From Eledone cirrhosa (Eukaryota): a DNA stretch of 64,000 nucleotides. A model generated the notes under the pieces. The model had not been told where the DNA came from. It did not search any database and was given only the letters and a program-made list of their open reading frames with translations. The stretch is taken from assembly GCA_964016885.1 (NCBI GenBank), contig OZ024741.1, positions 38,998,001 to 39,062,000 on the forward strand. Reading direction: 5' to 3'. Below are positions 2,805-64,000 of the stretch, piece by piece (position 1 is the first letter of the stretch; every line of letters starts with the position of its first letter). The position numbers and the translations under genes are program-made.

Positions 2805-3113
<309 letters not shown>

Positions 3114-6590: not shown

Positions 6591-6847
6591 CGTCCTATGA
6601 CAGCTGTTACATAAATATAAGTATACACACGTACACATATATATACATATATAGAGATATATTTGATATACCTCATATGAAATGATACAGCCAATTTTCC
6701 ACACAATACAATTAGTTAGCAACCCGAACGTTTAATTAGGAATATACTCAGGTATTTCCTAATGTTTGTTGAGTGAGCTGGAATTTGGCCGGAGTATCGC
6801 TTTTAGCTTTCTCCGATTATGTATTTATATATATATATATATATATA

Positions 6848-7048
6848 TGAACAAGTAAGACCCCGACGGCTGAGCTCAAGCCGTTTCGACAGCTAATTCT
6901 GGACTGAATGGAGTCCAGAATTAGCCGTCGAAACGGCTTGAGCTCAGCCGTCGGGGTCTTACTTGTTCCTATTACCCACTCTACTACCCTAAGTATTGAG
7001 TACTTTGGTGCGTTATGGTCCACCTGGTTCCTTACCACATTTCTTTCG

Positions 7049-7050
<2 letters not shown>
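6848..7050 (+). mobile_element. Fold-back PLE terminus, family A
   Basis: Same palindrome-plus-tail layout as 2805-2997, with (TA)n flanks. Confidence 0.85.
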
Positions 7051-7098
<48 letters not shown>

Positions 7099-8408: not shown

Positions 8409-11890
<3,482 letters not shown>

Positions 11891-14741: not shown

Positions 14742-14843
<102 letters not shown>

Positions 14844-14855
14844 TTAATATAGATG

Positions 14856-14906
14856 AGATTCTACAGGACTAGAACTGTTTCATTCATTAGAAATCATCAG
14901 GAATCT
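14856..14906 (-). ncRNA. Type I hammerhead ribozyme (family C, inverted copy)
   Basis: Exact reverse complement of 20766-20816. Confidence 0.85.
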
Positions 14907-15601
14907 GGGTATCAAAAAATAAATATGGTATTTATAGGTCTCTACAAGTGGTAGGAGAGGGTGGGGAGTGGGATGGGTGCAGGTCATTGGTTGATAGAAA
15001 AGGGGATTCATTAAAAGCTAATTCTACAAAGCTATAGTTTATTTTTATTTTTATTTATATTTATTTATGTTTTTAGAGTAACAAAGGCAGACAGAATTCT
15101 ATAAACAGGTTCCGGATGGCATACCATTCCTTGTCAATAAGTTTCTCTTAAGCTAACAGATGTCTATAAAATCAGTGGGGGGTCAGTCATGGTCGATAGA
15201 ATTAAAGAAAAGGGAGATTCTTTAAAAGCTAAAGTCATTAAGGTTCTACTAAGTGACAAAGGTCTAGAGAATTCTGCAGACAGATTCAAAATACTGAGTG
15301 CATATCTTACTATTATCTTCGAACTTCTCTTAAACTAATCAACTATATGCCAAAAATCAACAGACACATTCACAAAAAAACAAAAAAAACAAAAAAACAA
15401 AAAAACACACATACTCACTCACACACTTACGCGCAACCATAAACACACACACAAACACATATACACACATAAAAACACACACACATATATAAAAATATAT
15501 AAATATATATAAATATATATTCATGTACACACACATACATACACACATACATACATACATATACAATACATATACATACATATATATATATATATACATA
15601 A

Positions 15602-15730
<129 letters not shown>

Positions 15731-15879
15731 CACACAGATACACACACACATACACATACACACACACACACATATATACACAAATCAATACACTCACACG
15801 CATACATACAAACACGAGTATACATATGTATAAATATCTATACACACACACATATACACACATATATATATACATATAC

Positions 15880-15983
<104 letters not shown>

Positions 15984-16080
15984 CCATACATATACAAACA
16001 TACACGTACATACACAGACCTATACATAAATATACACATATATATACAGACATATAACGCATATATACACACACATATAC

Positions 16081-16139
<59 letters not shown>

Positions 16140-16741
16140 GATAAATCTACCAAGAGTTTACGGTAGTGTCCAATCCGTATGAAGAACTCAATGTATTCCG
16201 GATATCATGGAAAGAAGAGATGTAATGAAAAATCACTTTCGGTGAAAGATAAACGGTATACAGAGTCAAGATAAAATATTAAACAAATAATGAATAAAAC
16301 AATGAAACAGTTCCTTATATTAAACAAAAAAAGTTCATTATTTAACGATCGTTTCTAGGATATATATGTGTGTTTGCATGTTCGTAGTTATGTGTATGTT
16401 TATGCATATACGCGCGTGTGTGTGCGATTGTACTGATATGTGTGAGTATGAGAATATGTGTATACACTTATTTCATATTTATGTGTCTATACGCATCTTA
16501 TCTGTGCATTATAAACTTACAGAGACATTAACCTTGAAATTTTGTATTTGCATCCATCCTTTTGGTATGCGTATACAAGTTGAGCATACATTTTTGTAAA
16601 ATATGTGTAAGGGTAGTTACATGTATATACACACACCGAACTGCATTAAACCTTTTGTATTTTCATTGGTCAATTTTGTTCCCAAACGGACCTGAAATTT
16701 TGAATTGTTGTTATTATCAATAAATATATTTCATTATTTCT

Positions 16742-16861
16742 TTACGATCTGAGTTCAAATCCCGCCGAGGTTGACTTTGCCTTTCATCCTTACGGGGTCG
16801 ATAAAATAAAGTACCAGTAATGCACTGGGTAATTGCTGGCCTTGTGCCTAAAGTAGAAACA
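16742..16861 (+). mobile_element. SINE family 1, 5'-truncated, with 9-bp TSD
   Basis: ATTATTTCT at 16733-16741 and at 16862-16870. Confidence 0.8.
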
Positions 16862-17009
16862 ATTATTTCTGAAGACGGCGTATATATGTGTTGGTATGTA
16901 TATTTAATCTTGATAGTTTGTATAATTTTGTATAATTTTGTACATAGATCTGTTAAATATGCATGCCAATTCTAACACATATATATCCTAGAAACGATCG
17001 TTAAATAAT
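16862..17009 (+). ncRNA. Type I hammerhead ribozyme candidate with ~115-nt stem II
   Basis: ATTATTT-CTGAAGA-[TATATATGTGTT/AACACATATATA and GGTATGTATATTTAA/TTAAATATGCATGCC helices]-GAAA-CGATCG-TT-AAATAAT. Confidence 0.75.
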
Positions 17010-17066
17010 GAACTTTTTTTGTTTAATATAAGGAACTGTTTCATTGTTTTATTCATTATTTGTTTA

Positions 17067-17115
<49 letters not shown>

Positions 17116-17233
17116 ATACATATACATATACATATATATACACACACGCGCGCATACACACATACACACACCCCACACACAAAATATATATACACACTCT
17201 CTCTCTCACGCACATATATATATATATATACAC

Positions 17234-17267
<34 letters not shown>

Positions 17268-17273
17268 ATATAC

Positions 17274-17340
<67 letters not shown>

Positions 17341-17343
17341 TAT

Positions 17344-17385
<42 letters not shown>

Positions 17386-17507
17386 ACACACATACACACA
17401 TATATACATACATACACACATACACATACACAGACACATACATATACACATATATATATACTCACATATATACACACATACACACACACAAATATATATA
17501 TATATAC

Positions 17508-17556
<49 letters not shown>

Positions 17557-17563
17557 TACACAT

Positions 17564-17606
<43 letters not shown>

Positions 17607-17685
17607 TATATATATATACACACACATACATATACATACATATACACACACACACATACACACATATACATATATACATACAAAT

Positions 17686-17737
<52 letters not shown>

Positions 17738-17751
17738 CTGCCCACACAACC

Positions 17752-17821
<70 letters not shown>

Positions 17822-17839
17822 GCACACACATACATACAT

Positions 17840-17922
<83 letters not shown>

Positions 17923-17941
17923 TATACACACACACATACAT

Positions 17942-17988
<47 letters not shown>

Positions 17989-18113
17989 TACATATACACA
18001 TATATATACATATACACACACATACATACATACACACATACACATACATATACATAAACATACATACATACATACACATGCATACATACATACATACATG
18101 CACATATATACAC

Positions 18114-18176
<63 letters not shown>

Positions 18177-18267
18177 AATACACAAACATATACATACATA
18201 TACATACATAAATATACACACATAAAACACATATACACACAAACATATATATATATATACATATATA

Positions 18268-18341
<74 letters not shown>

Positions 18342-18559
18342 TACACATATACACATATACAAACAAATATATACACATACAAGTAAATAGGTACTCAATA
18401 AATATACCCATATACGCAGGCACATAAAGACACCTCTACAGGCAGAAAATGTAGATACGAAAGAGGTACTCACATAACCATAGTGGCCGTATTTCAGGTT
18501 GAGGAGGGGTGGGGGTAGGGTGGGGAGTAGGTATAGGGGCCAAAAGGGGGAGGTCGTTT

Positions 18560-19084
18560 TTAGCCATCGGGCTTTAACACTGGCTTAAAATGTTTGAATG
18601 TTGCAAGGTTCTTGTGCATGCAGTTCGGGCAGTGTTCAGAGACTTTGTTCAGTAGCGGGCCCTTGGCGAATAAAATTTCGTAGCTCTCTGAAATACAAAG
18701 GTCGCAGCCCTTGTGTCCTCCGTTGTAAGAGCGCGCTTTCTGGAGTATTTTCCAATTTAGCGTGAAGGGGGTGGAGTTCCTTTTGAGGTCCCAAACGTAG
18801 GAGGCGAGTGTTGTCTGATTTGATTTATCTGGTCTTCTGAAGGAGTGGGTATGGGCATACCAACGGGTCTTAAAGTTGTTGGAGGTCATGCCGATGTAAG
18901 TTTTTTTGCAATCCTCGGTGCCTGAGATGACATCGCATTTGTATACGATGTCATTTGTGAGGCATTTGTTTTCTAGTGGGCATGCTTCCTTATTTAGGCA
19001 ATTACATAGAGCCCCAGTCCGGGGATTGGTTTCGGAGGTGGTTGGCTTATTTAGTTTAGAGTTGTGGTTGGCTATATTCCTAGC
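18560..19084 (-). pseudogene. PLE GIY-YIG endonuclease domain (5'-truncated ORF)
   Basis: Open frame ARNIANHN...CNC...CPLENKC...IVYKC...[13 protein letters not shown]...CDLC..E...LLNK..CMH. Confidence 0.88.
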
Positions 19085-19113
19085 ACATACACATACACGT
19101 ATGTGTATGTGTA

Positions 19114-19202
<89 letters not shown>

Positions 19203-19336
19203 GTATGTATGTGTATATATATATATATATTTGTGTGTGTGTATGTGTGTATATATGTGTGTATATATATATGTGTATATGTATGTGTCTGTGTATGTGT
19301 ATGTGTGTATGTATGTATATATGTGTGTATGTGTGT

Positions 19337-19370
<34 letters not shown>

Positions 19371-19377
19371 GTGTATA

Positions 19378-19418
<41 letters not shown>

Positions 19419-19574
19419 GTATATATATATATGTATGTGTATATATATATATATATGTGTATATATATATATATATGTGCGTGAGAGAGAGAGTGTGTAT
19501 ATATATTTTGTGTGTGGGGTGTGTGTATGTGTGTATGCGCGTGTGTGTGTATATATATGTATATGTATATGTAT

Positions 19575-19654
<80 letters not shown>

Positions 19655-19751
19655 GTATATGTGTGTGTATATATGCGTTATATGTCTGTATATATATGTG
19701 TATATTTATGTATAGGTCTGTGTATGTATGTGTATGTTTGTATATGTATGG

Positions 19752-19817
<66 letters not shown>

Positions 19818-19968
19818 GTATATGTATATATATATGTGTGTATATGTGTGTGTGTATAGATATTTATACATATGTATACTCGTGTTTGTATGTATGCGTG
19901 TGAGTGTATTGATTTGTGTATATATGTGTGTGTGTGTATGTATGTGTATGTGTGTGTGTATCTGTGTG

Positions 19969-20088
<120 letters not shown>

Positions 20089-20765
20089 TGTATGTATATG
20101 TATTGTATATGTATGTATGTATGTATGTGTGTATGTATGTGTGTGTACATGAATATATATTTATATATATTTATATATTTTTATATATGTGTGTGTGTTT
20201 TTATGTGTGTATATGTGTTTGTGTGTGTGTTTATGGTTGCGCGTAAGTGTGTGAGTGAGTATGTGTGTTTTTTTGTTTTTTTGTTTTTTTGTTTTTTTGT
20301 GAATGTGTCTGTTGATTTTTGGCATATAGTTGATTAGTTTAAGAGAAGTTCGAAGATAATAGTAAGATATGCACTCAGTATTTTGAATCTGTCTGCAGAA
20401 TTCTCTAGACCTTTGTCACTTAGTAGAACCTTAATGACTTTAGCTTTTAAAGAATCTCCCTTTTCTTTAATTCTATCGACCATGACTGACCCCCCACTGA
20501 TTTTATAGACATCTGTTAGCTTAAGAGAAACTTATTGACAAGGAATGGTATGCCATCCGGAACCTGTTTATAGAATTCTGTCTGCCTTTGTTACTCTAAA
20601 AACATAAATAAATATAAATAAAAATAAAAATAAACTATAGCTTTGTAGAATTAGCTTTTAATGAATCCCCTTTTCTATCAACCAATGACCTGCACCCATC
20701 CCACTCCCCACCCTCTCCTACCACTTGTAGAGACCTATAAATACCATATTTATTTTTTGATACCC

Positions 20766-20816
20766 AGATTCCTGATGATTTCTAATGAATGAAACAGTTC
20801 TAGTCCTGTAGAATCT
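20766..20816 (+). ncRNA. Type I hammerhead ribozyme (family C)
   Basis: AGATTC-CTGATGA-TTTCTAATGAAT-GAAA-CAG TTCTAGTC CTG-TA-GAATCT. Perfect 6-bp stem I and a GUA cleavage triplet. Confidence 0.88.
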
Positions 20817-21117
20817 CATCTATATTAAAACTGTTATACTCTGCTATGTATTAAGTACCTTACTTACTGTGGTTACCTCCGATTCAACCCGGAATAACGT
20901 ATATATATATATATATTAATTTAAAATATAAAAAATAGACATTCGTGTGATCAAGTATATTTTATTATACATATTTTCAGATCACATGAACGTCTATTTT
21001 TGTTAATATTTTGAAATAATATTAATAACTCCGGAAAACCAACGCTGTGGAGTGCTTCTAATCTATTGTAAAACTTTATTCTTTGATTTATTCATTGAAC
21101 CTTGTTTAACCTTTAAA

Positions 21118-23194
<2,077 letters not shown>

Positions 23195-35857: not shown

Positions 35858-35862
<5 letters not shown>

Positions 35863-36057
35863 AAAAGAGTCAGAACCCCGACGGCAGAGCTCAAGCCGTT
35901 TCGACAGCAATTTCTGGACTCAGATATAGCTGTCGAAACGGCTTGAGCTCTGCCGTCGGGGTTCTGACTATTTTCCTATTACTCACTCTACTACCCAAAG
36001 TATCGAGTACTCTGGTGCGTTATGGTCCACCTGATTCCTTACCACACTTCGTTCGTT
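35858..36057 (+). mobile_element. Fold-back PLE terminus, family A subfamily
   Basis: Palindrome plus tail. Subfamily substitutions are mirrored in both arms. Confidence 0.8.
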
Positions 36058-36280
36058 ATATATATATTTCGTTTCTGAATTTGTTTAGCAAGATTCTTTA
36101 TCTGAAATCGTGTGTTGAAACCGATATTGTTATACTTTGGGAGGGTCATGTTGCCAATAAGAAACACAATAAGAAACCGGATGTGGCGCATGCGCAGACT
36201 GAGCACACAACACACACACAGAAACAAAATGGCGTAGGACAGAAAAAAGGAGAGGCACAGAAACAAAGAAAGGAATCCCC

Positions 36281-41348: not shown

Positions 41349-41390
<42 letters not shown>

Positions 41391-41394
<4 letters not shown>

Positions 41395-41585
41395 AAAAAG
41401 TATGACCCCGACGGCAGAGCTCAAGCCGTTTCGACGGCTATTTCAGTCCAGAAATAGCCATCGAAACGGCTTGAGCTCTTCCGTCGGGGTCATACTTTTT
41501 CCTATTTCCCACTCTACTACCCTAAGTATTGAGTACTCTGGTGCGTGCGTTATGGTCCATCTGGTTCCTTACCACAATTCCTTTG

Positions 41586-41587
<2 letters not shown>
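41391..41587 (+). mobile_element. Fold-back PLE terminus, family A subfamily
   Basis: Palindrome plus tail in (TA)n. Confidence 0.8.
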
Positions 41588-41668
<81 letters not shown>

Positions 41669-42543: not shown

Positions 42544-42734
42544 ATAGGAACCAGTAAGAGCCCAACGGCTGAGCTCAAGCCGTTTCGACGGCTAATTCTC
42601 AGAATTAGCCGTCGAAACGGCTTGAGCTCAGCCGTCGGGGTCTTACTGGTTCCTATTACCCACTCTACTACCCTAAGTATTGAGTACTTTGGTGCGTTAT
42701 GGTCCACCTGGTTCCTTATCACATTTCCTTCGTT
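42544..42734 (+). mobile_element. Fold-back PLE terminus, family A
   Basis: Palindrome plus tail in (TA)n. Confidence 0.85.
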
Positions 42735-42778
42735 ATATATATATATATTAGACATATATATATTTATATATATATATT

Positions 42779-47520: not shown

Positions 47521-50500
47521 GACATAAAATATGTCAAAAGGAACGCTCCTGGACAAGAAGATGTAAAAGAAGACGGTATGCCTTCTACTGGAGCTATGTC
47601 ATATGTTGCCATGACAACAGTCTCAACAGACAGTAGCATCAGCACTTTTCGTAATGAGGATATTACGAACATCAACAACAGCAACTCAACAACTGGAAAA
47701 ACAAAAACAACACAAAGACAAATGTTACAAACAAAACCAATAACAACGGGAACACGAACCAAGTGAAAAACAACAACACCAACAACAATCAAAATAACAA
47801 TCAAAATGACAAAAACAATAACAGCAACAGCAGCACAAGTGAAATCAAAATCAAATACAGATGAAAGAAACATTTGCAACAACAGATGCCAAACAGACGG
47901 AATTTATAGACATAGACATATCAAATAAAGCGCAGTATCTGCAGGGTGTTGTTCAATATATAATTGTTGAGGGTTTTCGGATCAACACCCCACCAGAAAT
48001 TAGGGCCGCAACCCTAACGAAACAATTTTCTATCGAACTGTGTCTATAGAATCAAGAAAACATGCTTCTTTGCCTCAGAATACAGTAAAAGGTGTGTTGA
48101 GGGAGGAAATGCAAGACATTGCCTACCTTCAGAAAGCAAACGAGGCACTTCCACAAAAATATTCGGTGGCTCCAATTAAAACGAGCCAATGCATCTTTTT
48201 CCCTACATACATGGAAAGAACACATAATATAAGGGTGTCCAGATCCCACCGAACACCAACATTTGGTGGATCCTGGGCGGCTTTTTGAAGCCTTCTCTCT
48301 GTAAAGAAGTCAACCAGGTATAAATGGAATGGGACTCGGTGGAGCACCTGGTTCAAATGAAACCAGAAAGAATTTCGAAGATACCCGAAAGAGTAGCTGT
48401 TGATAACAACTATGTTATCAACATCAGAGTGGAGGGCAGAAAACCACAGCGTTTTCGATGTGGAAAGGATACCCATATAAAAGCATTAGAAACCATTATT
48501 ATTACTATTGTGTGGGTGTGTAATGTCACCATTTGTCGTTTGTAACAGGTGTTGGTATTGTCAACTGAAGATTTCCTTCGAATGAAACAGTTCTAGTCCT
48601 ACAGAAGCCCGGACGCCATGCTTTGGCGCATAGAGTTACGGCCCTTGCCATTCTGAGTTCAAATCCCGCCGAGGTTAGGTTTGCCTTTCATCCTTATGGG
48701 TTCGATAAAATAAAGTACCAGTAATACACTGGGGTAGTTTTAATCGACTTTCCTCTCCCTTCAAATTGCTGGCCTTGTACTTAATGTAGAATCATCATTA
48801 TTACTATTTACGTTCTGAGTTCAAATCCCGCCAAGGTTAACTTTGCCTTTTTTTCATCCTTACAGGGTCAATACTAAATAGAGTCGACCATCAATACTTG
48901 GAAGCGGTTCTCAAGGCGGCCGGTTTCGTACCCGTGTTAATAGGCTGGATCGCTACCAGGCACAGAAACATCTGCTCGGCAGTCATGGTGAATGGCTAAC
49001 TGTCAGAGTCATTCCAAATCACGCGTTCCATCCGTTAGGGATGGCCTCTCTGCTCCATTCTGTATGTATTGACTCTCGGAAGTTGGAACTGATGTAGGGC
49101 ATTTCAATAGAACCAGAACTGCGAAAAACAGCGTCGGTCTATGCCGACGTGTGATGATAATGGTGTCGAAAACATCGGAAATCGGGGTGATCGGCAACTT
49201 AATACAGGAATACGAAAATCTGACGGAAGCAAAACTGACACGGACAAGTCTGTCGGCTTGCAACTCGGCATGTGGAGAGGAAAACCGATGCCGTCCGACA
49301 GCGTCGTTGGACGCTGGACGTGAAATTGCTCGGGGTCTGGTTCGGTCCAGATCACCGGGTGGAGTAAAACTGAAACGAGGTCACGGCAAAGGTATTTGCT
49401 CTCACGCAGAAGTGGGCTGAGTGCAAACTCTCCTTAAAAGGTCGAGTGGAGGTGGCGAACACTTACATAGCGTCCGTCATCTACTACTGCTTGTCAAACG
49501 TGACTTGTCCCCTTGATCACCTCGCCAAAATGGAACGCCTACTCTTCAAGTTCCTTTGAAAGAAACAGGCTCGACTGGTGAGGAGATCCATCTGCTGCCA
49601 ACACCCTTCTAACGGAGGGCTGGGCATGTCATGGCTGATGATGTGCAAACCCGTACTAGGGCTACGCCATCTCCAGGTATTCCTGACTGGTGAACCGGTG
49701 TGGTCGTCGCTTGTGAGACAAGCTTTTCCGCAACTCGTCTCGCTAATGGAACTGCAGTCCTGGGTCAAGCGAAGACCGAAAATGGGTGCTTGGCACCTCG
49801 AGTGCACTCAGGCGCTCGCAATCCTCTATCAGGAGGACACGGCAATCAGCGGGGACTCCACGTCAACATTCTATAGAGGGTTAGTGGAGGATAAGTGCGA
49901 CAACGTTCTCGGGGAGACTCTAGACGTTGAAGAGGACGAAGTGGCAACTCTGTTCGGGAGGTCTTTCCGTACAGGACCTATGGAAAACTATGGATCCTGC
50001 CAAAAAGACCTGTCCAAGATGCGAGCGAGACATTGAAACCGTTCTGCATGCAATTATTCAGTTCCCGGGGTTGGCCTACCTGTGGAACTAAGTCGAACAG
50101 CTACTGTTATGTGTGGGACAAATCCAGTTGACAGCCGAGTCCATCGTGAGGATCAACCCGCCGCCTTCATTTAAAAACGGAGAGGCGGTTTTCCTCTGCC
50201 TGGTGGCTATGGCGAAAGAGGTAATATGGTGGACGAGATTAAAAGGACTGAGGACAGACACCTTCCTCTCCGGACAACAACTCATTCCCTTCTTTAAATA
50301 CCACTTTAGAAGGAAAATGAGAGTGGAGAGAGAGGTGCTTCACCCAGTAAATTCGCTGAAAGGTGGGTGAATGCGGCGAAAATGGCCCGAGTAATTAGGC
50401 TTTCTCTGTATATAAACCTGTTGGTTGAAGAAAAGAGAGAAGACAGAAGCACTCACAAAACATGCTCCAGGAGTTGGAGGTTTTTCTATCTACGGGGTGT

Positions 50501-50643
50501 AAAACAACCCAATTGTAATGTTCCCCCTATTGGGGATTTCTATTTTTATTTATTATTTTATATATGTTAAACTTTTGTTTACACGCTTAAATATAACGTC
50601 CTGTAATTTCCTGTAATTTCTTGTGCGCCTTTGTGGCAAATAA

Positions 50644-50684
<41 letters not shown>

Positions 50685-50686
50685 CT
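47521..50686 (+). mobile_element. Degraded Tx1-like (L1 group) LINE: ORF1, RT and 3' remnants
   Basis: ORF1-like VEGRKPQ.FRCGKDTHIKA. RT-like RVDHQYLEAVLKAAGF and a decayed QGCPLS region near 49030. HPSNGGLGM motif. Ends AATAAA-(TCTA)n. Confidence 0.75.
48510..48796 (+). mobile_element. Hammerhead-SINE chimera with 12-bp TSD
   Basis: ATTATTACTATT at 48498-48509 and at 48797-48808. The body matches 33004-33265. Confidence 0.65.
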
Positions 50687-51766
50687 GCGGCACCTGCACG
50701 TATTCCTCACCGGACAACTGGTGTGGGCCCCGTTCGTGAGGCGAGCCTTCCCACGACTCGTCTCGCTGACCGAGCTGCAGTCCTGGGTCAAGAAAAGACC
50801 GAAGAAAATGGGCGACTGGCACATCGAATGTGCTCAGGCGCTCACAGTCCTCTGGCAAACGGACCCGGCGATCAGTGGAGACTCCACTTCGACATTCTAT
50901 AGAGGGTTGGTCCGCAGCAAGTGCGACGACGCGCTCGGAGAAACTCTAGGCGTAGAGGAGGACGAACTGGCCAGTCTATTCGGTAGGACCTTCCGCCCGA
51001 GACCAATGGACAACTTCCAAAAGTCCCTGGCCTGGCAGTGCTACCGAGGAGCTCTACCAGTTCGAGACAAGCTCTACAGACACGGGCGCCCGGGCAGGGA
51101 TTCTTCGAAAAAGATCTGTCCGAGATGCGTGCGCGACGAGGAAACCGTACACTGCCCGGGCGTTACCGACCTGTGGGGCTATGTGGAACGACTATTGTCG
51201 CGGGTGGGACCAATCTAGTTGACCACCGAGTCCATTGTCATGATCAAACCGCCACCCTCCTTCAAAAACGAGGGAGTGGCGGTTTTCCTATGTGTTATAG
51301 CTATGGTGAAAGAGGTTATATGGTGGACGAGGTTAAAAGGGCTGAGGTCAGGAACCTTTCTCTCCGGCGAGCAACTGATTCGTTTTTTCAAATATCATTT
51401 TGGAAGAAGAATCAGGATGGAGAGAGAGGTGCTGTACCCCAGCAAATTTTATAAAAGGTGGGTGAATGTGGCAAAGATGGCCCGAGTGGTTGGGCCTTCT
51501 CTCTCTATAAGCCTGTAGGTTGAGGAAAAAGAGGAAGAGAAGAAGGGAGTACTCACTCTTGGTGCTCCTGGAGTTGAGGTTTGTACATTTTTTCGGGGTG
51601 TGTACAACCTCTGTGTAACGCCTCCCCCTATTGGGGATATCAATTGTTATTTGTTATTTTATTAATAGTTTTATTTTCATATACCTGTATGTAAACTCCC
51701 CATTTGTATTTGTCCCCTTCTTTTGAGCCCTTGTGGCTAATAAAGAAATTTATCTATCTATCTATC
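50687..51766 (+). mobile_element. Tx1-like LINE 3' fragment (second copy)
   Basis: LAWQCYRGALPVRDKL...CPRC...ETVHCP zinc-finger region. It starts in the (TCTA)n tail of the first copy and ends in (TATC)n. Confidence 0.85.
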
Positions 51767-52276
51767 TGTGATGGCAATTGTGAAAGAGGTTGTATGGTGG
51801 ACGAGGTTGAAAGGGCTGAGGTCAGACACCTTTCTCTCCGGCCAACAACTGATTCTTTTTTTCAAATACCACTTTGGAAGAAGAATCTGGATGGAGAGAG
51901 AGGTGCTGTACCCCAGCAAATTTTATGAAAGGTGGGTGAAAGTGGCGAGAATGGCCCGAGTGAATGGGCCTTCTCTCTATATCAGCCTGTAGCTTGAGGA
52001 AGAGGAGGAAGAGGAGGAAGAGGAGGAAGAGGAGGAAGAGTACAAACTCTTCGTACTCCTGGAGATGAGGGTTGCACATTTTTTTTCGGGGTATGTGTCA
52101 CCCATAGTTAATGTCTCCCCCCGATTGGGGAAAATCAATTGTTTTTCTTTAATTTTCATCTGTGATATTGTTTTACACGTTTTTATTGAATGTAAACTTC
52201 CCTCATTGTACTTGTCCCCTTCTTTTGTGCCCTTGTGGCTAAAAAAGAAATATATCTATCTATCCACCTACCTATC
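51767..52276 (+). mobile_element. Tx1-like LINE 3' fragment (third copy)
   Basis: KEVVWWTRLKGL...SLYISL* plus the homologous 3' UTR and TATC tail. Confidence 0.85.
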
Positions 52277-52890
52277 TCAGCAAAGAACAAGCATATTATG
52301 TCTTTTGTATAATAATATAATCATTCTTTTACTTTTACTCGTTTCAGTCATTAGACTGCGGCCATACTGGGGCACCACCTTTCACGGGATTTAGTCGCTC
52401 ATATCAACACCAGAGTATATTGTTTTCAAACCTGTGACATGTTTATTTTATTCATCACCATTGGTCGAAGTACTAAATCCTTAACCATACAGCAATGCTT
52501 GTACCTAAAGTCAACATATATATAAAATTTAGGAGTGACAATAATAACTATTTCTAATTTAGGCAGAGGCCAATCAATTTGCTGAGAAGGGAAGTTCGAC
52601 AAGTTCGATACCAGTATTTCATTGCTATTTTATTTTGTCGGACTCGGAAAGGTGAAAGGCAATGGTCACCATGCCGAAATTTAAATTAAGAAAGTTAAAG
52701 GTTGGAATAAATAACACAGAATATTCTGTTTGATGCTCTACCTATTTTGCTAATTCATTGCCTTTAGTGACGAAAATATAACATTCACTACCTAGTCATG
52801 ATACTGAAAACTGAAAACGGTAAGTTTCTTAGTAAATAAAACAACATTTATATTGAATTTATCCTCTCGCTAACGACTTCTCTGCACACA

Positions 52891-52953
<63 letters not shown>

Positions 52954-52954
52954 T

Positions 52955-52988
<34 letters not shown>

Positions 52989-53032
52989 TATACATAGACA
53001 TATACATATATGTATACACAGACATACACCCA

Positions 53033-53120
<88 letters not shown>

Positions 53121-53154
53121 CATACATGTACGATATATATTTATATACATATGT

Positions 53155-53908
53155 ACGATGTGTATATGAATGTATATATACTGTATTTTGCAATACACTA
53201 TGCTTAATTAAAAGCATTTTGAAGACCTTACGCTATTGTTTTAAAGTAGTGACTATTTCACTTACTTCTTTTTTCAACAAACAAAGGGAGATAAGCTGAC
53301 AGATCTCTGTTTCATACTGTTGGTATTCCTCAGAGCTTAGCATTCCCCTTGAATTATGAATGTTGGATTCTTATAGATCTCCAGTAATAATCAGGAACTG
53401 ATTATACAGAGCGGTTGCCGGTCCAGTAAAAATTTAAAATTAGAATTGGTGCTCTGAAATAGCGATGTATATATGAATGTATATATAGTGTATTTGCTTA
53501 ATTAAAAGCATTTTGAAGGCCTTATGCTATTGTTTTAAAGTAGTGACTATGTCACTTACTTCTTTTTTAAACAAGAATCTGACAGATCTCTGAAATAGCG
53601 ATATATATATGAATGTATAAATAGTTTATTTTCAATTTTTACTGGACCGGCAACCGCTCTGTTATAATCAGTTCCTGATTATTACTGGAATTCTATAAGA
53701 ATCCAACATTTATAATTTTCAACAGACGAAGGGGAGTGCTAAGCTCTGAGGAATACCAACAGTATGAAACAGAGATCTGTCAGCTTATCTCCCTTTGTTT
53801 GTTGAAAAAAGAAGTAAGTGACATAGTCACTACTTTAAAACAATAGCGTAAGGTCTTCAAAATGCTTGTAATTAAGCATAGTGTATTGCCAAATACAGTA
53901 TATATACA

Positions 53909-53915
<7 letters not shown>
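53155..53915. mobile_element. Fold-back PLE terminus (~300-bp arms, internal rearrangement)
   Basis: 53163-53432 is inverted to 53635-53915, with a partial third copy at 53466-53600. Confidence 0.75.
53732..53793 (+). ncRNA. Canonical type I hammerhead ribozyme
   Basis: GGGAG-TGC-TAAGCT-CTGAGGA-ATAC CAACA GTAT-GAAA-CAG AGAT CTG-TC-AGCTTA-T-CTCCC, with a GUC site. Inverted copy at 53286-53347. Confidence 0.9.
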
Positions 53916-53974
<59 letters not shown>

Positions 53975-54186
53975 TACATGTGTACGTATGGGTTATATCG
54001 AATATCAATCATAATGTTCGATTCGTTTGTAAACAAACGGCCTCTCATGAAGCTGTGCCGGTGACCGATCGTCACCTGTTTGTTCAACACTATTATTATT
54101 AATGTTCGATATAAGCCATACGTACATATGTAGATGTGTGTGTGTGTATGTATGTATGTATATATGTACTTATGTGTGTATGTGTG

Positions 54187-54235
<49 letters not shown>

Positions 54236-55588
54236 TTCGTTTTTGAATTTGTTTTGCAAGATTTCTTATCTGAAAAGGTGTTGAAACAGATATTGTTATA
54301 CTTTAGGAGTGTCATACCGTCAATAAAAACAGACTCACCTGTTGGTTTTCACTACAATTTACTATAAATTTCCGGATATATATATATATATATATATATA
54401 ATATGAGAATGTAGGCGGTAAAATCCAGTTGGACCATTACTGACCAGAGTACTCGATACCTGGGGTAATAGAGTGTTGAAACGGCCGGAGCTCAGCCGTC
54501 GTTGTTTCTAGTTAAGATCAGTAAGGACATAATTTAACATAGTACTCTATATTGAATAAAATAGAATGTCGATATTACTATAAAGAGTCACTGCCCCTCA
54601 TCAGGTAATCAGATAAAAATACGAAAAGAAACTACTTTAACTGAGTATATTTGGTTTTATAAAGAGGAAAGTCGCATTTTGGAAACATTGGAGATAATTC
54701 TGGAGTTTAGATATGTGTTTGATGAGTATAGACCCTGCAAGATCCTAAATTTGTCGCTGAAGGAGAGTGGGCATACCGTACAAAAATGGTAGGAAGTGAT
54801 GCCTGCTCTGCCTTAGCGAGAAATTTGGGATTCTGTGGGGTTTATACTCACACAGTCTTTGACGGAAGTCTTTAGACATTGTTTCCATCAGAAGGCCTAT
54901 CTCTTGTACAACTGGAAGCCTACACTGCAACAAGCCCCTCACCGGACCTGCTAAATCCGCCATGATCCTATTTCTCTGTGTTACATATCCACGCACAAAA
55001 AAATTTGAATACATCACATCCACACTAATAATGTTGAAAGAGGATTTTGTATTACAATATCACATTGCACCCAAACGATCAACTATCAACAATTTAAAAA
55101 GAAAATTCTTTTTGTATATTCTGACTTTAGGTATTGGGAGGTTATCAGAAGTGGCTTAAATACTTTAAATATTTGCAATATAGCTGACGAGCCAGATTAC
55201 AGACATTTGCACTCCCAAAGTTGCCTCTCTTGATCCCCTAGAAGTAAACATTCTACTATCTCCGTTGGCAACGATCTCATTCAAAGGGTTAAGTTTTGTT
55301 AGATAATTAGCACACAGCTCATACCACATGTATATTACACACAGATAAATTAAATTATCTCCCTTGTTCCCGAAATGCGGCTTTCCACTGTTTAAAACCA
55401 AATATAGTTAGCTAAAGGGTTTTCTTTTCATATTTTTGTCTGAGTGCCCGACGTAGGCCAGATTTGAATAGGCTCTTCCACTATACAGTGGTGACCATAT
55501 GAGGACCCCGAAACCTAGGGACACGCATACATGCTAAATGTTTGAAATGAAACTTTAATTAAACTATGTATATATATATACACACACG

Positions 55589-55628
<40 letters not shown>

Positions 55629-55852
55629 TATATATATATATATAAATATATATATATATATCTATATATACATACATATATATATGGGAAAACAAATGAT
55701 CATTATAGGTAATCCAGTAAGAGGTTGTGAATACTCCGTATTATGGATAGTTTTAGCGTACGGCGTTGTTTGACTCAACAAGAGGTTTCCTTAGGTAGCG
55801 AGTTTGCGAGTTCTTGGGAATTCCTATGCAGGTTAATCTTGGAGTAATAATG

Positions 55853-56103
55853 GTGAAAGAGTGCAGAATAACATGGTCAACAGTACAAAAATGGTTTTAT
55901 TTACAGTATTAACAATTGTTTCATTGATTAAGTTGTCTAAAAATTGCTAATTATCCGATGATTTGATTAAGCATACATTGTATTTAAAATTGAGTGACAC
56001 AATTGATTAGCAATTTTAGACAACTTAATCAATGAAACAATTGTTAATACTGTAAATAAAACCATTTTTGTACTGTTGACCATGTTATTCTTCACTCTTT
56101 CAC
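55853..56103. repeat. Fold-back remnant related to 7605-7765
   Basis: ~100-bp inverted arms containing GAAACAATTGTT. Confidence 0.7.
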
Positions 56104-56342
56104 TATATATATATATATAAAATATAATCTTTTTAAAATAACATTATCTCTAATACGATTCTTTAACCGCCATATCCTTTCTCTCACAAACCCTAACCAT
56201 ATATATATTCCCCCATCATTGCCTTATTACTATATTTTTTGCGGGAGGGGGGGGGGGGGCTTAATCTTTGCACTTTTAACCATGATATCATAATGAGTGG
56301 TTTTATGACTTATATATTCTTAATACTACAGAAGCATTTTAA

Positions 56343-56442
56343 TAAACTCTGAGGACACCTGTATTGAGTTCTAACCAGGAGTTACTAAACAAAGTGACTC
56401 TCTATACATGACTCAATACAGGTAGAAACGATTGTTAGTGTA
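56343..56442 (+). ncRNA. Type I hammerhead candidate with 13-bp stem II
   Basis: TAAACT-CTGAGGA-C-ACCTGTATTGAGT...ACTCAATACAGGT-A-GAAA-CGATTG-TT-AGTGTA. Confidence 0.7.
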
Positions 56443-56920
56443 TAAATGATTTAACTCTTTGGTGTTATTTAAACTATTAATGTATAACAGCCCTGCATGA
56501 CCCTCATTGCATTGAGCAACAAAACACCCTGTAGATAAGTATAATTACTCACATTAATATTATATTATTAGTACTAGTATTCTATATAAAGGGTCATTCC
56601 ATCTCAAATCACACAAGGGGTCCCAAGTCACACCTTCAGATCCCCCCTGAACAAATTCATACTAGCTCCTGTACCTATATGATGGGAAAATATCAAGTAT
56701 TAGGTCAATATCTTTGATAGTTTTGAAATTGTAGGCCTTTAAAATATTAATTGATTATACATTTTTTTCCGAACGAGTCTCTCAGACCAACTTGAGACAG
56801 CCATTTCTCCTCTAATAAGGTAAGCACAATTTTGAAATCATGGGTTTGGGCTTATTTCTTCTGTAGAGTTCATTTTTCTGAAACTGTGTGATTTGATATG
56901 GAATAACCCTATATATATAT

Positions 56921-57339
56921 CAGTCGATCGACTTTCGTCAAATCGGACCGAGGTAACAATGTTTCCATTGGACTTTCCAATTGCTACTACTGATCGACTT
57001 TCGTCAAATCGGACCGAGGAAACAATGTTTCCATTGGACTTTCCAATTGCTACTACTGATCGACTTTCGTCAAATCGGACCGAGGAAACAATGTTTCCAT
57101 TGGACTTTCCAATTGCTACTACTGATCGACTTTCGTCAAATCGGATCGAGGAAAAAATGTTTCCATGGGTTTTTCCAATTGCTAATACTATCTACCGGTC
57201 GCAACTCCAGGTAGAAGGAGCAACATGAAATAAAGTGTCTTGCTCAAGAACATAACGCATCGACCGGTCCGGGAATCGAACTCACAACCTCACGATTGCG
57301 AATCCAGTTCTCTAACCACTCAGCCACGCGCCTTCACTC
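56921..57339 (-). mobile_element. SINE family 2 with a 3' tandem array
   Basis: Minus strand A box TGGCTGAGTGG and B box GAGTTCGATTCC. Homologous to 1591-1792. Confidence 0.8.
56926..57189. repeat. 66-bp tandem repeat, 4 copies
   Basis: GATCGACTTTCGTCAAATCGG starts at 56926, 56992, 57058 and 57124. Confidence 0.95.
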
Positions 57340-57558
57340 TATATATATGCGTGTATGTGTGCGTGTATGTGTGTGTGTATGCATATAAAAGTGTATTCCT
57401 TCGGTTCAAGAGAATTTAGCTATGATGTTTCAGCAAAGCGAGCTGGTTATTTGCTTCGAGGAACTTTCATGGCTAAGTTATAAGAAACTGAATAATATAG
57501 ACTTTATTGTCAATATCGATATCTACCAGACTTCTGTATTACTAACCAGGATCATTAG

Positions 57559-57603
<45 letters not shown>

Positions 57604-58276
57604 TCACACACACAAGAGCTCATACACACACCACACACTCACACACACACGAACTCATACACACGCTCTCACACACACACACGCACAAACTCGCACACAC
57701 ACACTCACACACAAACTCACATACACACTCACACCCACACACGCTCACACACACACATACTCACACACACACACACGAACTCATACACACATTCTCTCAC
57801 ACACACAGGCACAAACTCGCGCACACACACACTCACACACGAACTCACACACAGACATACGCACACTCACACACACAAACTCGCACACACACACGCAAAC
57901 ACACACACACGCACACACACACAAACACAGAGTCACAAGTACACACAGACGCTCACACACTCAAACACACACAAACGCTGACACACACACACATACACAC
58001 ACAGACACACAGACACACAGACACACACTCACACACCCACACACACACACACACATACACACCCACAAATGTACACACCCACACCCATACACACACATAT
58101 ATATATATATATATATATGTATATCTTTCTATCTATCTATCTATATATATATATATATATTGACTGCCAAGACTGGAATTGAACCATCAGCACAGTTGAG
58201 GTGTGTCAGACATCAATTTATTTTATCTGATGAGGACGTTCTGAGGAAACAGCACAGTACCTCTGAAATATATATA

Positions 58277-58470
58277 TAATTGTTTCTACTTTTGGCACAA
58301 GGCCAGCAATTACCCAGTGCATTACTGGTACTTTATTTTATCGACCCCGTAAGGATGAGAGGCAAAGTTCACCTTGGTGGGATTTGAACTCAGAATGGCA
58401 AGGGCCGTAACTCTATGCGTCAAAGCATGCCATCCGACCCTCTACCAATACTGCCAATCCACCGCCTTTT
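58277..58470 (-). mobile_element. SINE family 1, full-length
   Basis: A box TGGCAGTATTGG, B box GAGTTCAAATCC, core and tail. Confidence 0.88.
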
Positions 58471-58536
58471 ACTGATATATATATAATAAAATATATTTTG
58501 ATTACGTTGAATGTCAATATTTATTAATATTTTGAA

Positions 58537-58643
<107 letters not shown>

Positions 58644-60030
58644 CGAAGGAAATGTGGTAAGGAACCAGGTGGACCATAACGCACCAAAGTACTCAATACT
58701 TGAGGTAGTAGAGTGGGTAATAGGAACCAGTAAGACCCCGACAGCTGAGCTCAAGCCGTTTCGACGGCTAATTCTGGACTAAATGAAAATTTATCCTGGT
58801 ATTTAAATAGCCGATCTTCTCAAGGGGTAATTCCATATATGGTCAAAGTGATTGTCAAAAATCAGTAGTAATTCTGTGGTTGCAAATTAGTAGGGGAGAT
58901 GGTGGCTAAACCTGCCAGTAGGAGAAAGAGGGGAGGGGGTGGAGTAGACCCAATCAAGCGTTGGTAGTGCCAGCTACAGCTGGGCATGAGGTCAAAGAAG
59001 ATACAGGGGAGGGGGAGGGGGAGGGGGAGGAAGTCGGAACGGTAGGTAGAACAATGGGGGGTAGAAATATAGGAAGGAAAAAATACTGAGAGTGAAGAAA
59101 AGCAAATAAGTGTAAAGAAAAAAGTAAAGTAAATTAAATTCTACGACCTAGGTGTCAGGCTATTGTTAGGCTAGAATAAAATAAATAAAGAAAGAAAGAA
59201 GTAAAGAAATAAATAAATAAAGAAATAACGAAATAAGTAAAAGAACTAGGTGGGACGAAATAGGCAAAGACCCTTTTAAGAGGTATAAGTACGTAAATGA
59301 TACGGTGACGGGTCAACAAAAGGGGCCAAAATACTAAAGAGACTACCACGAAATAAACAATAAAGGTTTCCATCCCGGGCCAGCAACGACCCAGTGCAGC
59401 AAAGTGAACTTGTACGAGATAATAATTCTGAGTCCCGAGAAAAATATATACTAATGCTAACTCTAAAAGATCTAAAACAAGCTACATGAAAGTTCGTACG
59501 AAATAAAGGTAGAATACGGAGAAATAAATTCAGAATCCACCCCGCCCAGAAGAAAAGCGAAGCAAGAAATACTGAAACGAAAAAATAAGGCATAAGTGCC
59601 ACTAAGAAATATAGAGGGCACAGAGAATAGTGGGAGCAGTCGGAAAGAGGGGGCAAGTATCCGGGGTCTAAGCCAACTGCTATAAAGGGCGGAGTCCGCC
59701 AAATCTATCATAGACTAGGGGAGGGGGTGGTGGGGGTACTAAAGCTACATGGGGCCAAAGGGCAGCCTCGGGTGGGCGAGAAAAGACGCCGACAAAGGAG
59801 AAGAGCTGGGGTAGAAGGACAGGAGCTGGGGTAGAAGGACAAAGGAGAGAGGGGGGAAGGAAATAAAGGAAGCGATAAAAGAATACAAAGAAGATCTTAC
59901 GTCTTCCTTGGCAAGCAGGGGTTACCCATTGCAAAATCGGCAAGTGGGGTGTTATAGCCCTAGTCTACCCCCCCCCCCCCCCCGGGTCATTATGGGGTTT
60001 GAGGGCGAGGTAAGTCCTACGCAATCTATG

Positions 60031-61358
60031 TTAACATGCAGTAACCAGTTCATCTTTCTTGTTTAGGAGTTGGTCCGTCGAAAACAGCATTTGTAAAGTT
60101 TCCTCCGAGCATAAATTGCACGGACGGCGTCCTCCCGTGTAAGAATTGGCTCTGGACAGTAATCTCCAAGTGAGATCATAGGTGATGTTGTTGTCCTTGA
60201 GGTCCCATATGTGGCCCGAAAGTGTAGTGGCGTGACGCCGGGCCGGGTTTCGGAAGGTATGTCTATGTTGGTATAGCCGGGTCTTGAAGTCACATGCGGT
60301 AAGTCCTATATAGGCTTTGTTGGAGGTATCCGTCCTCACGTTGCACTGGTAGATCACATTACGGTCTCTACATCTATTGTCGAGTGGGCAAATAGATCTA
60401 TCCGGGCAGTTACACCTCCTGGTCGGGTCTCCACTGCTATTTAGGTTATTTCTGACATCGGGGTTGAGTTTTTTGTTGTTAGAGGAGACGATGTTTTGTG
60501 CGAAGTTTGGTGTAGTGCTGTAAGAGAGTTTGATGGTATTTTTGTTAATTATGTTGTGGTAGCGGTGTTGTAATGGGAAGTGTTTTTCAATGAGCCTAAA
60601 GAATAGTTTCTCGATGGGAGTAGTCACCTCTGCGTTGTGGGGAGGATTGAACCATGTTACATTGCGTGAGCGGCGGTGTCTCCTGCTGGTTCCGCTAATG
60701 GGAGCTGGACAGTAGGATATTTCCTCCCGGAAACCACTCCGCTTGAGGGCCTGGTTGTAATAAGGCGCATGTTCATCGAATATCCGCTCATTAGCTGACA
60801 AACGGGATATGCGGAGGGAGATGTTTTTGACCAGGTTGTTTGTGATGTTCCTAGGATGGTTTGATCGGCGGTGGATGTAGTGCAGATTGTCATTAGGTTT
60901 CCTGTATGGGTAGTACAGGTCGTTTTCGAGGTCGAGGGTCACGTCCAGGAAGTTTGCTCGGGTCAGGGACGTTTGTAGGGTTATTTTAAATCCCCAGTCG
61001 CGGAAGAATCTGATTAATTGTTTCCGGACCCGATCTGTACTACTGGGGTTGTACCCTTTAAGGGTAAGGAGCCCATCATCACGGTACAATCCACCACCGA
61101 ATGCAGGAAACATATCAGTGAGTTTGGCTATTAGGAATAATCCTATAAGATCTGTGACCTCCGCCGAATCCGTGGCGCCCATGCTGACGTCGAAGGGTGA
61201 GTCGGGAGCTCTTTTTATCCATCTATAGTCGTCAAAGAGTAAGACTGTCTTCCTGGCGTGGAGAATGATTTTTCTTTCCTGGTCGGTGATGGGCACAAGT
61301 GTTTCGGCGAAGTCCAAGGCGGCAGTAAGTAGCGGTAAGGTGATTGAAGCATAGTAGC
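60031..61358 (-). pseudogene. PLE RT (from motif A onward) + GIY-YIG endonuclease
   Basis: SYYASI, FDVSMGATDSAEV, GLYRDDGL, NFLDVTL, SNHP, WFNPP, CNC..CPL..C..NVIY..YIGLT..FKTR..H, CNLC..E..LLNK. Premature TAA at 60031-60033 (AAA in the other arm). Confidence 0.93.
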
Positions 61359-62574
61359 TGAACTGGTTACTGCATGTAAACATAGATTGCGTAGGACTTA
61401 CCTCGCCCTCAAACCCCATAATGACCCGGGGGGGGGGGGGGGGTAGACTAGGGCTATAACACCCCACTTGCCGATTTTGCAATGGGTAACCCCTGCTTGC
61501 CAAGGAAGACGTAAGATCTTTGTATTCTTTTATCGCTTCCTTTATTTCCTTCCCCCCTCTCTCCTTTGTCCTTCTACCCCAGCTCCTGTCCTTCTCTACC
61601 CCAGCTCTTCTCCTTTGTCGGCGTCTTTTCTCGCCCACCCGAGGCTGCCCTTTGGCCCCATGTAGCTTTAGTACCCCCACCACCCCCTCCCCTAGTCTAT
61701 GATAGATTTGGCGGACTCCGCCCTTTATAGCAGTTGGCTTAGACCCCGGATACTTGCCCCCTCTTTCCGACTGCTCCCACTATTCTCTGTGCCCTCTATA
61801 TTTCTTAGTGGCACTTATGCCTTATTTTTTCGTTTCAGTATTTCTTGCTTCGCTTTTCTTCTGGGCGGGGTGGATTCTGAATTTATTTCTCCGTATTCTA
61901 CCTTTATTTCGTACGAACTTTCATGTAGCTTGTTTTAGATCTTTTAGAGTTAGCATTAGTATATATTTTTCTCGGGACTCAGAATTATTATCTCGTACAA
62001 GTTCACTTTGCTGCACTGGGTCGTTGCTGGCCCGGGATGGAAACCTTTATTGTTTATTTCGTGGTAGTCTCTTTAGTATTTTGGCCCCTTTTGTTGACCC
62101 GTCACCGTATCATTTACGTACTTATACCTCTTAAAAGGGTCTTTGCCTATTTCGTCCCACCTAGTTCTTTTACTTATTTCGTTATTTCTTTATTTATTTA
62201 TTTCTTTACTTCTTTCTTTCTTTATTTATTTTATTCTAGCCTAACAATAGCCTGACACCTAGGTCGTAGAATTTAATTTACTTTACTTTTTTCTTTACAC
62301 TTATTTGCTTTTCTTCACTCTCAGTATTTTTTCCTTCCTATATTTCTACCCCCCATTGTTCTACCTACCGTTCCGACTTCCTCCCCCTCCCCCCCCCCTC
62401 CCCTGTATCTTCTTTGACCTCATGCCCAGCTGTAGCTGGCACTACCAACGCTTGATTGGGTCTACTCCACCCCCTCCCCTTTTTCTCCTACTGGCAGGTT
62501 TAGCCACCATCTCCCCTACTAATTTGCAACCACAGAATTACTACTGATTTTTGACAATCACTTTGACCATATAT

Positions 62575-62684
62575 GGAATTACCCCTTGAGAAGATCGGCT
62601 ATTTAAATACCAGGATAAATTTTCATTTAGTCCAGAATTAGCCGTCGAAACGGCTTGAGCTCAGCTGTCGGGGTCTTACTGGTT

Positions 62685-62686
<2 letters not shown>
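62575..62686 (+). ncRNA. Type I hammerhead with U3:A8 core (family A)
   Basis: ACCCC-TTGAGAA-GA(T)CGGCTA...TAGCCGTC-GAAA-CGGCT..AGCTG-TC-GGGGT, with a distal GGAA/TTCC extension. The sense-strand copy is at 58723-58834 (-). Confidence 0.78.
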
Positions 62687-62763
<77 letters not shown>

Positions 62764-63112
62764 GGAAGCAGAAAATTGCTTATTGTGATCCAGTTCGTGG
62801 TTAAGAAAGGCAGTTTCATGGACGGTTTCAACGTACGGTTAGGGGTAACTCCACAAGTTTATAAGAATTCCGTTCAATCTTGGAGTATAAAGTATAAAAG
62901 AGAAAACACAGGTAAGCATTAAGAGAAGTATTTTATCCAGGTATTTACGACCGTTTCATTGGTAAATGCAACCTTATATTGCTATACTGCAAATAGCAGC
63001 CACTCAATTATAATTGTTGTTCATGTCCAAATTTTCAAAATAGTGAGTAAGTTACTCTTGAAATAGTTCTTAATATATAGAGAAAAACATTTTTTGGGAA
63101 ATGTATTTACTA

Positions 63113-64000
63113 GTATAGAGAGAGAGGAACAGGAATTAGAAAGTGAGGGGACAAACGGAATAGTATAGAGAGAGAGGGAGGGGGAGAAGAGTTAGGAAGT
63201 AGAGTGACAAACTGAGATGGATGGGAGGGGTAGAGGTGGAAGGATTCCTTGATCAGTTTTGATACGTAGACTTCATGTCGTCGATTGTAGTGAGTTAAAT
63301 ACACCCTGAAGTGGAAAAAATTATCGAACGCGTCCCAATATCGGAGTGACATGAGAAACTGTCGATTATGTGAGCTGTTCCACATTTTGAGTGCGAAGAA
63401 TAAGTTACTCAACAATAAAATCGAAAGATCAATTTATTGTAACCATAGACTCAAAGAAAAGTTTTCGCACTACAAGTGCAAATCGAACCCTTAATCTCTT
63501 ACTACCAACTGACAAACTGCATATACTTAGACTTTATACCCTCTTATTATATCTAACCCCTTTAATTACCCACAAAAACCAATACCTATATCCCTCCCTT
63601 CTCCTTCATTCCTCTTCTATTTCTTTTTGTTTTCTTCCTTTCTTCCCTCCCCTTTTTGGCTATCTTTTCTTTTCTTCTTTCTCCCCTTTCTTTATTTTTA
63701 TCATTATTATTTTTATCTTTATTATTTTTTATATATATATTTATCTCTTTATATCTCCCCCCCCTCTCTCTCTCTCTCTCTCCATCCCTCCCACTATGAT
63801 CAATTTAATTCTATTTAACTCACTACAATCGACGACATGAAGTCTACGTATCAAAACTGATCAAGGAATCATTCCACCTCTACCCCTTCCTCCATCTCAG
63901 TTTGTTACTCTACTTCCTAACTCTTCTTCCCCTTCCTCTCTCTCTATACTATTCCGTTTTCGCCCTCACTTTCTAATTCCTGTTCCTCTCTCTCTATACT
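63113..64000. repeat. Inverted arms of another fold-back element, running off the window
   Basis: 63113-63297 is inverted to 63815-64000. Confidence 0.75.

Follow-up and report, generated by a model that had tools for sequence, protein, structure and literature searches.

The sister subfamilies of a hammerhead ribozyme carried by a Penelope-like element (PLE) of Eledone cirrhosa differ in the state of the 3-8 pair of the core, and a phylogeny of the linked reading frame suggests that the pair was broken as C3.A8 and only later restored as U3-A8 (hyphens denote Watson-Crick pairs, dots mismatches and wobbles). On balance, we think it probable that U3-A8 is a second-site repair of this ancestrally broken pair, in a slow ribozyme that individual jumps probably do not require. 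More tentatively, and with somewhat less than even confidence, we propose that C3-G8, U3.G8, C3.A8 and U3-A8 form a natural allelic series in which the pair was broken through more than 1,300 sites and then restored, together with stem II, by selection. The position numbering used for hammerheads, like the role of G8, is general background that can also be found in the papers cited below.

What is new here is the states of the 3-8 pair in sister subfamilies and their order, not U3-A8 itself. The variant alone changes nothing, as it is already in print (PMC3088659, PMC4209133), which the sequence-only reading of this DNA had missed. The subfamily ladder is relevant to the question of how far Penelope-type elements depend on their hammerheads. 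A lineage whose 3-8 pair was mismatched while it spread, and was re-paired later, provides natural alleles for that question, together with a rare instance of compensatory RNA evolution in which the intermediate was a C.A mismatch and not a wobble. If the proposed series is correct, it would show in vivo that transposition can do without PLE hammerhead cleavage even though such cleavage is favoured in the long run, and it would supply an immediate means of testing what these ribozymes do.

A U3-A8 hammerhead in both arms of the element

The window, a 64,000-nucleotide stretch of contig OZ024741.1, contains a type I hammerhead of subfamily A at 62575-62686 on the forward strand, within the inverted pLTR arm of the element, as judged by sequence, fold and descriptor. 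The core UUGAGAA spans 62586-62592 (TTGAGAA in the DNA; U3 at 62586, N7 at 62590, A8 at 62591, A9 at 62592), and its register follows from ungapped alignment to C3-G8 relatives and from variation in contigs. Stem I is formed by 62581-62585 and 62670-62674, with an extension (62575-62580/62681-62686) across a 6-nt bulge. The long stem II occupies 62593-62646 and in the predicted fold consists of the closing pair G62593-C62646 (G10.1-C11.1), an A-U pair, one bulged U, six pairs, an internal loop and a distal hairpin. The segment at 62647-62669 comprises GAAA from 62647, a stem III of six pairs with a palindromic loop (62650-62655/62663-62668) and GUC (62667-62669), with the cut predicted after C62669; it is followed by the 3′ strand of stem I (62670-62686, forward strand), where the inverted arm ends about 17-20 nt beyond the predicted cut. 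A second, identical hammerhead lies on the reverse strand at 58723-58834 (core 58823-58817, predicted cut after 58740), in sense with the reading frame; as had been claimed, the motif is the same in both arms, with no difference over the 127 nt compared.

The canonical CUGANGA core is absent from the window hammerhead, which instead has the published variant UUGAGAA and in which a Watson-Crick pair is possible at 3-8 (U62586-A62591); G10.1-C11.1, GAAA, A15.1-U16.1 and H17 are all present. The three-helix fold, open at stem I, is the minimum-energy structure of 62570-62690, which together with the positions above confirms the earlier description of a UUGAGAA core with stems I, II and III, GAAA and GUC in register. 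This fold was no more stable than those of shuffled sequences (z -0.46). Local pair probabilities were 0.97, 0.62 and 0.63, and in a 400-nt context predicted stem probabilities were 0.06-0.13; there a competing fold with GAAA locked in a hairpin is predicted to win, in subfamily A too. A descriptor composed after the motif was seen, and covering long-stem hammerheads with C3-G8 or U3-A8 only, matched exactly two sites in the window, namely the hammerheads of both arms, and had no match when the 2.7-kb main copy was dinucleotide-shuffled 1000 times. None of the 47 Rfam matches in 50000-64000 at E ≤ 5 was a hammerhead; standard searches thus overlook the UUGAGAA motif, and the expectation that a CUGANGA-type search would miss it was borne out. 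As judged from these features, the motif is a genuine copy of the hammerhead carried by PLEs, for which self-cutting is predicted.

Two further features of the fold were noted. ACCAG at 62609-62613 is complementary to CUGGU at 62679-62683, a possible contact between stem I and loop II, but this complementarity is not kept in sister subfamilies, which lend the pseudoknot no support. Stems II and III also share CGGCU/AGCYG words (62596-62600, 62640-62644, 62651-62655 and 62663-62667), so that two mutually exclusive folds are possible; such alternative folding could conceivably serve as an off-switch for the ribozyme.

Assignment of the host element to the Hydra clade

The main copy of the element is 5′-truncated and lies on the reverse strand (58643-61360). 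Joined to its truncation is the inverted pLTR arm (61356-62689, forward strand), which is 99.3% identical to 60055-58720 over 1338 nt. The 3′ part of a reverse transcriptase (RT) plus GIY-YIG frame, starting near residue 324 of 786, occupies 59965-61360 (reverse strand) and is interrupted by a premature stop at 60031-60033, making this a dead copy. A one-sided tail of about 80 nt (58643-58722, reverse strand) brings the long end to about 100 nt beyond the predicted cut, and (TA)n target tracts border the insertion at 58544-58642 on the left and 62687-62758 on the right.

Elsewhere in the 3.0-Gb assembly that we searched, tandem copies have a 3543-bp unit with a single 786-codon frame, whose first ATG is located some 190 nt beyond the predicted cut. 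The frame encodes RT followed by a C-terminal GIY-YIG endonuclease (YRDDG at 415, IYQC..YIGLT at 659-677), along with RWR (104), DKT (184), CNCPDRSIC (639), CNLC (737) and CKH (765); CCHH is absent, and one C lies within the GIY-YIG core. A Pfam scan returned no families. In a protein search, 2027 of the 7997 proteins scored matched at E ≤ 0.001, with 38-54% identity among the 120 matches listed. The published description of the Hydra clade of C-terminal EN+ PLEs (PMC8557442), as far as available, shares the RWK-like, DKT, CxCX5C, CxxC and CxH motifs, with RWR standing here where that clade has RWK. The same description includes (TA)n targets, tandem and inverted pLTRs, a one-sided tail and a hammerhead downstream of the ORF; these targets, pLTR arrangements and tail were all found here, as expected of a Hydra-clade PLE. 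The 3.5-kb unit and the U3-A8 core fall outside the descriptive Hydra traits (generally less than 3 kb, canonical hammerhead), which are not diagnostic. File S2 of that study (Craig 2021), in its Hydra rows, gives CUGANGA in all 26, and the ribozyme here is unlike that of Hydra-1_oBim. By motifs and traits set against published descriptions, the element is best placed in the Hydra clade; an assignment to Naiad was rejected given the C-terminal endonuclease. The context proposed earlier, a young PLE, also agrees with these data: the hammerhead sits in both arms of a young, 5′-truncated Hydra-clade element.

Insertion ends were classified for 186 distinct cores, of which 71 end at 13-26 nt and 79 at 93-109 nt beyond the cut, with 17 continuing and 19 unclassified. 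Since both classes lie beyond the predicted cut, the template would have been uncut or re-joined there. The PAc Poseidon PLE of Anolis (PMC11167929) similarly has two fixed ends past its hammerhead, described there as two RT start sites, and its insertion is likewise independent of an intact 3-8 pair; it differs in belonging to another clade with a canonical core and in having been studied through engineered mutants in vitro, whereas the present subfamilies are natural and known from sequence.

The lineage of the element has also left five short fold-back stubs in the window (2804-2999, 6845-7052, 35858-36059, 41390-41589 and 42544-42736), in each of which the ribozyme is reduced to its 3′ half, with the tail. 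Contigs cover this 3′ half about 20 times as deeply as the core, indicating that stubs far outnumber cores.

Core states across genomic copies

Genomic counts come from pattern searches and refer to exact-match sites, often two per insertion. UUGAGAA occurs in 2151 of the 2207 sites that share the same 16 flanking letters. Position 3 varies at 17 of these sites (14 C, 2 A, 1 G) and position 8 at 15, with no CUGANGA among either set; 24 further variant sites lie outside that listing. UUGAGAA is the norm of the family to which the window copy belongs, and we rejected the possibility that this copy is a private mutant of a CUGANGA family, which the sequence-only reading had raised together with the count that resolves it.

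Other states are found in sister subfamilies. At least 1321 sites, in older sister subfamilies (e.g., at L137, L154, L155 and L185), have the C3.A8 mismatch, and there the second pair of stem II is mismatched as well; a sister subfamily with U3-A8 and a mismatched second stem II pair accounts for 694 sites. A looser pattern requiring G8 recovered 21 sites: four C3-G8, 13 U3.G8 belonging to an older subfamily, and four private changes within subfamily A. The four C3-G8 sites share GUCGG at the cut as well as stem III; as they lack an ORF in the loci examined, they are placed by ribozyme similarity only. Among metagenome loci of protein relatives, canonical cores were present in five of eight (two distinct sequences).

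Register of the core

These states depend on the assigned register (U3, a G at N7, A8), which was proposed earlier and is the best supported. Across the core, the alignment of 12 relatives is gap-free, as is that of the window family with its C3-G8 homologs. TGA, GAT and TCGAAACGG are invariant in the 12, partly through construction of the search patterns, and GUCGG at the cut is present in 12 of 12, though outside those patterns. Contigs compared with an older copy are about evenly split at position 3, while N7 shows G>A at 11-13% and G>U at 2-4% of depth (X1-X3) and position 8 no variation at 2%; a further contig comparison gave a similar picture. The four contig runs come from one study, give no linkage between positions, and are not independent because they may be the source of the assembly. 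A variable N7 next to a fixed position 8 favours U3, G7 and A8 over a deleted N7. Covariation over the 12 relatives was not beyond that of shuffles, 98 of 500 of which reached the score.

It is highly improbable, in our judgement, that the core is instead to be read as CUGA-GA-A, with N7 deleted, an A inserted before stem II and 62590 as G8, so that the C3.A8 subfamilies would be C3-G8 and the window copy a U3.G8 wobble rather than U3-A8. Such a register would explain the success of the CUGAGAA subfamilies and keep G8 in every subfamily, and PLE hammerheads commonly have an additional base between 9 and 10.1 in the data available from PMC4209133. It needs two indels, however, where two transitions suffice; the relatives are gap-free, 62590 varies as N7 would while 62591 is invariant, and we found no publication on an active N7 deletion.

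A core with N7=A and A8, seen at L071:1512, makes up 11-13% of contig depth and is absent from the loci examined; this form may represent an unsampled older subfamily. No copy with A, C or U at N7, A8 and intact flanks was found among 201 loci, and a UUGAAAA match at L198 was set aside as weak, its stem III having just two pairs.

Order of core changes

The phylogeny was built from ORF DNA linked in cis to the core, using 29 copies, or 33 with the outgroup, out of thousands. Of 40 ORF matches, 11 had no core at a distance of 0.9-1.5 kb behind the ORF and were left out. For the 33-copy tree five U3.G8 copies were put back, two of them inverted relative to the core, and one duplicate was taken out. 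The ordering applies to few copies with one long-branch outgroup.

The resulting tree is a ladder that runs from C3.A8/GUU through C3.A8/GCU and U3-A8/GCU to U3-A8/GAU. The split between C3.A8 and U3-A8 has support of 95.6/98 in the 29-copy tree, and the U3.G8 outgroup attaches at the C3.A8/GUU end (support 98), across an interval in which no intermediate subfamilies were sampled. Monophyly of C3.A8 was rejected, as this constraint costs 60 log units (KH p 0.0005). Tip lengths drop in ladder order (0.045, 0.021, 0.014 and 0.003; fuller list of means 0.045, 0.021, 0.021, 0.014 and 0.003). Since U3-A8 is nested within a C3.A8 grade, A8 would have come first, breaking the pair, followed by U3, and by a sum of trunk branches the mismatch stage appears to have lasted for about 0.04 substitutions per site or more.

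The least probable of the alternatives we weighed is that U3-A8 was first reached through the U3.G8 wobble and that C3.A8 is a temporary lapse that later reverted. The presence of U3.G8 in the oldest ORF-linked subfamily (13 sites) and the N7=A, A8 form described above, in which position 3 is unlinked, speak for such a path; no such subfamily occurs among the 201 loci, however, and one more change is needed. It would affect the early history only and leave the C3.A8 stage unchanged.

For the earlier claim of a compensatory double change, the tree order thus has two consequences, in that U3 appears to have arisen on an A8 background, supporting "compensatory", but the partner change came after a long mismatch stage, weakening "needed". 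The presence of at least 1321 C3.A8 sites in ancestral subfamilies likewise implies that the 3-8 pair was not required for the spread of the lineage.

The ribozymes of the C3.A8 grade and subfamily A differ at eight positions. Two of these differences restore the 3-8 and 10.2-11.2 pairs, which adjoin the active site, while one gives distal stem I a wobble and another weakens stem III from G-C to G-U at 62666. For G10.1-C11.1 the predicted pairing probability is 0.62 in the window copy but 0.01-0.05 in the three B copies that were folded, and the preferred fold predicted for these B copies is a hairpin that traps GAAA. On these models, the GAAA hairpin of the older C3.A8 subfamilies is predicted to be inactive.

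Role of the ribozyme

We favour the repair of C3.A8 as the origin of the present core, and the steps may have been as follows. The ancestral state would be C3.A8 with a broken stem II pair, on which U3 arose to give U3-A8, with stem II being re-paired last, in the youngest subfamily. Some tandem or read-through transcripts would then be cut after C17 to give unit-length RNA, perhaps with assistance from the element's protein, and the benefit of cutting would be weak enough for temporary loss and strong enough for regain. The ribozyme would thus likely be slow, dispensable in the short term, and engaged in trimming tandem transcripts.

Published systems bear on this proposal. Natural U3-A8 cores were described by Perreault et al. 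2011 (PMC3088659), where covaried cores are stated to be active in vitro with reference to another paper; the covariation is the same as here, and the available text describes neither a retroelement lineage nor a mismatch intermediate, unlike here. Cervera and de la Pena 2014 (PMC4209133) give about 1,300 U3-A8 matches in Schistosoma PLEs, and in its available parts characterize metazoan PLE hammerheads as having low activity. The min-hammerheads of the Schistosoma mansoni Cercyon PLE in that study are, like those here, U3-A8, type I and pLTR-borne, with more than 1,000 genomic matches. The present ribozyme differs from them in its full six-pair stem III (with a monomer fold predicted), its long stem II and the lack of an extra base between 9 and 10.1, and its copies are young and near-identical and belong to a Hydra-clade element. 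The function of PLE hammerheads is called unclear in the consulted portion of Craig 2021 (PMC8557442). In the literature searched, which included few subscription papers, we found neither U3-A8 described in a Hydra element nor transposition of a C3.A8 subfamily, and the accessible portions of PMC6765202, PMC7151607, PMC6257768 and bioRxiv 10.64898/2026.07.22.740005 hold nothing on a UUGAGAA core.

Repair is favoured by the family-wide consensus, the gap-free C3-G8 homologs, the variable N7 beside a fixed position 8 and the tree order, and the dispensability of intact hammerheads for insertion reported by Frangieh 2024 fits it too; the unexceptional stability of the fold, the competing GAAA hairpin in a 400-nt context, the weakened stem III pair and covariation no higher than in shuffles speak against it. 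Also against repair stand the data available from an exhaustive double-mutant screen (Roberts 2023, PMC9901934), in which the G3-C8 swap alone rescued activity and other doubles were low, and the long success of unpaired elements at 1321 C3.A8 sites. Both would fit a ribozyme that has been inert since the loss of G8, in which U3 arose by chance as a transition in the master lineage and another job, such as an RT signal or promoter overlap, preserved the fold. This we consider unlikely, if the most serious of the alternatives. It would also be consistent with the finding of Frangieh 2024 (PMC11167929), in the parts available, that 3-8 mutants had no effect on insertion in vitro and that cutting needs protein, so that insertion can proceed without cleavage; moreover, the ribozyme and the ORF evolved at similar rates, with eight differences in about 110 nt of ribozyme compared with about 0.09 substitutions per site on the trunk (branch sum). 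An inert ribozyme is harder to reconcile with the sole core change on the trunk restoring the 3-8 pair while another change restores stem II, two restorations that together have a probability of about 0.005 under neutrality by rough, post hoc arithmetic, or with the retention of GUCGG at the cut in all 12 relatives, outside the search patterns.

Other elements in the window

Further hammerhead-like motifs with canonical cores were observed at 21271-23023, 53333-53746, 36286, 39771 and 46786, two of them as inverted pairs. Another element with inverted arms spans 14840-20832 and contains the remnant of a GIY-YIG-like frame near 18560-19080. Long RT frames at 8798-11626 belong to an unrelated element, which we take to be of LINE type.
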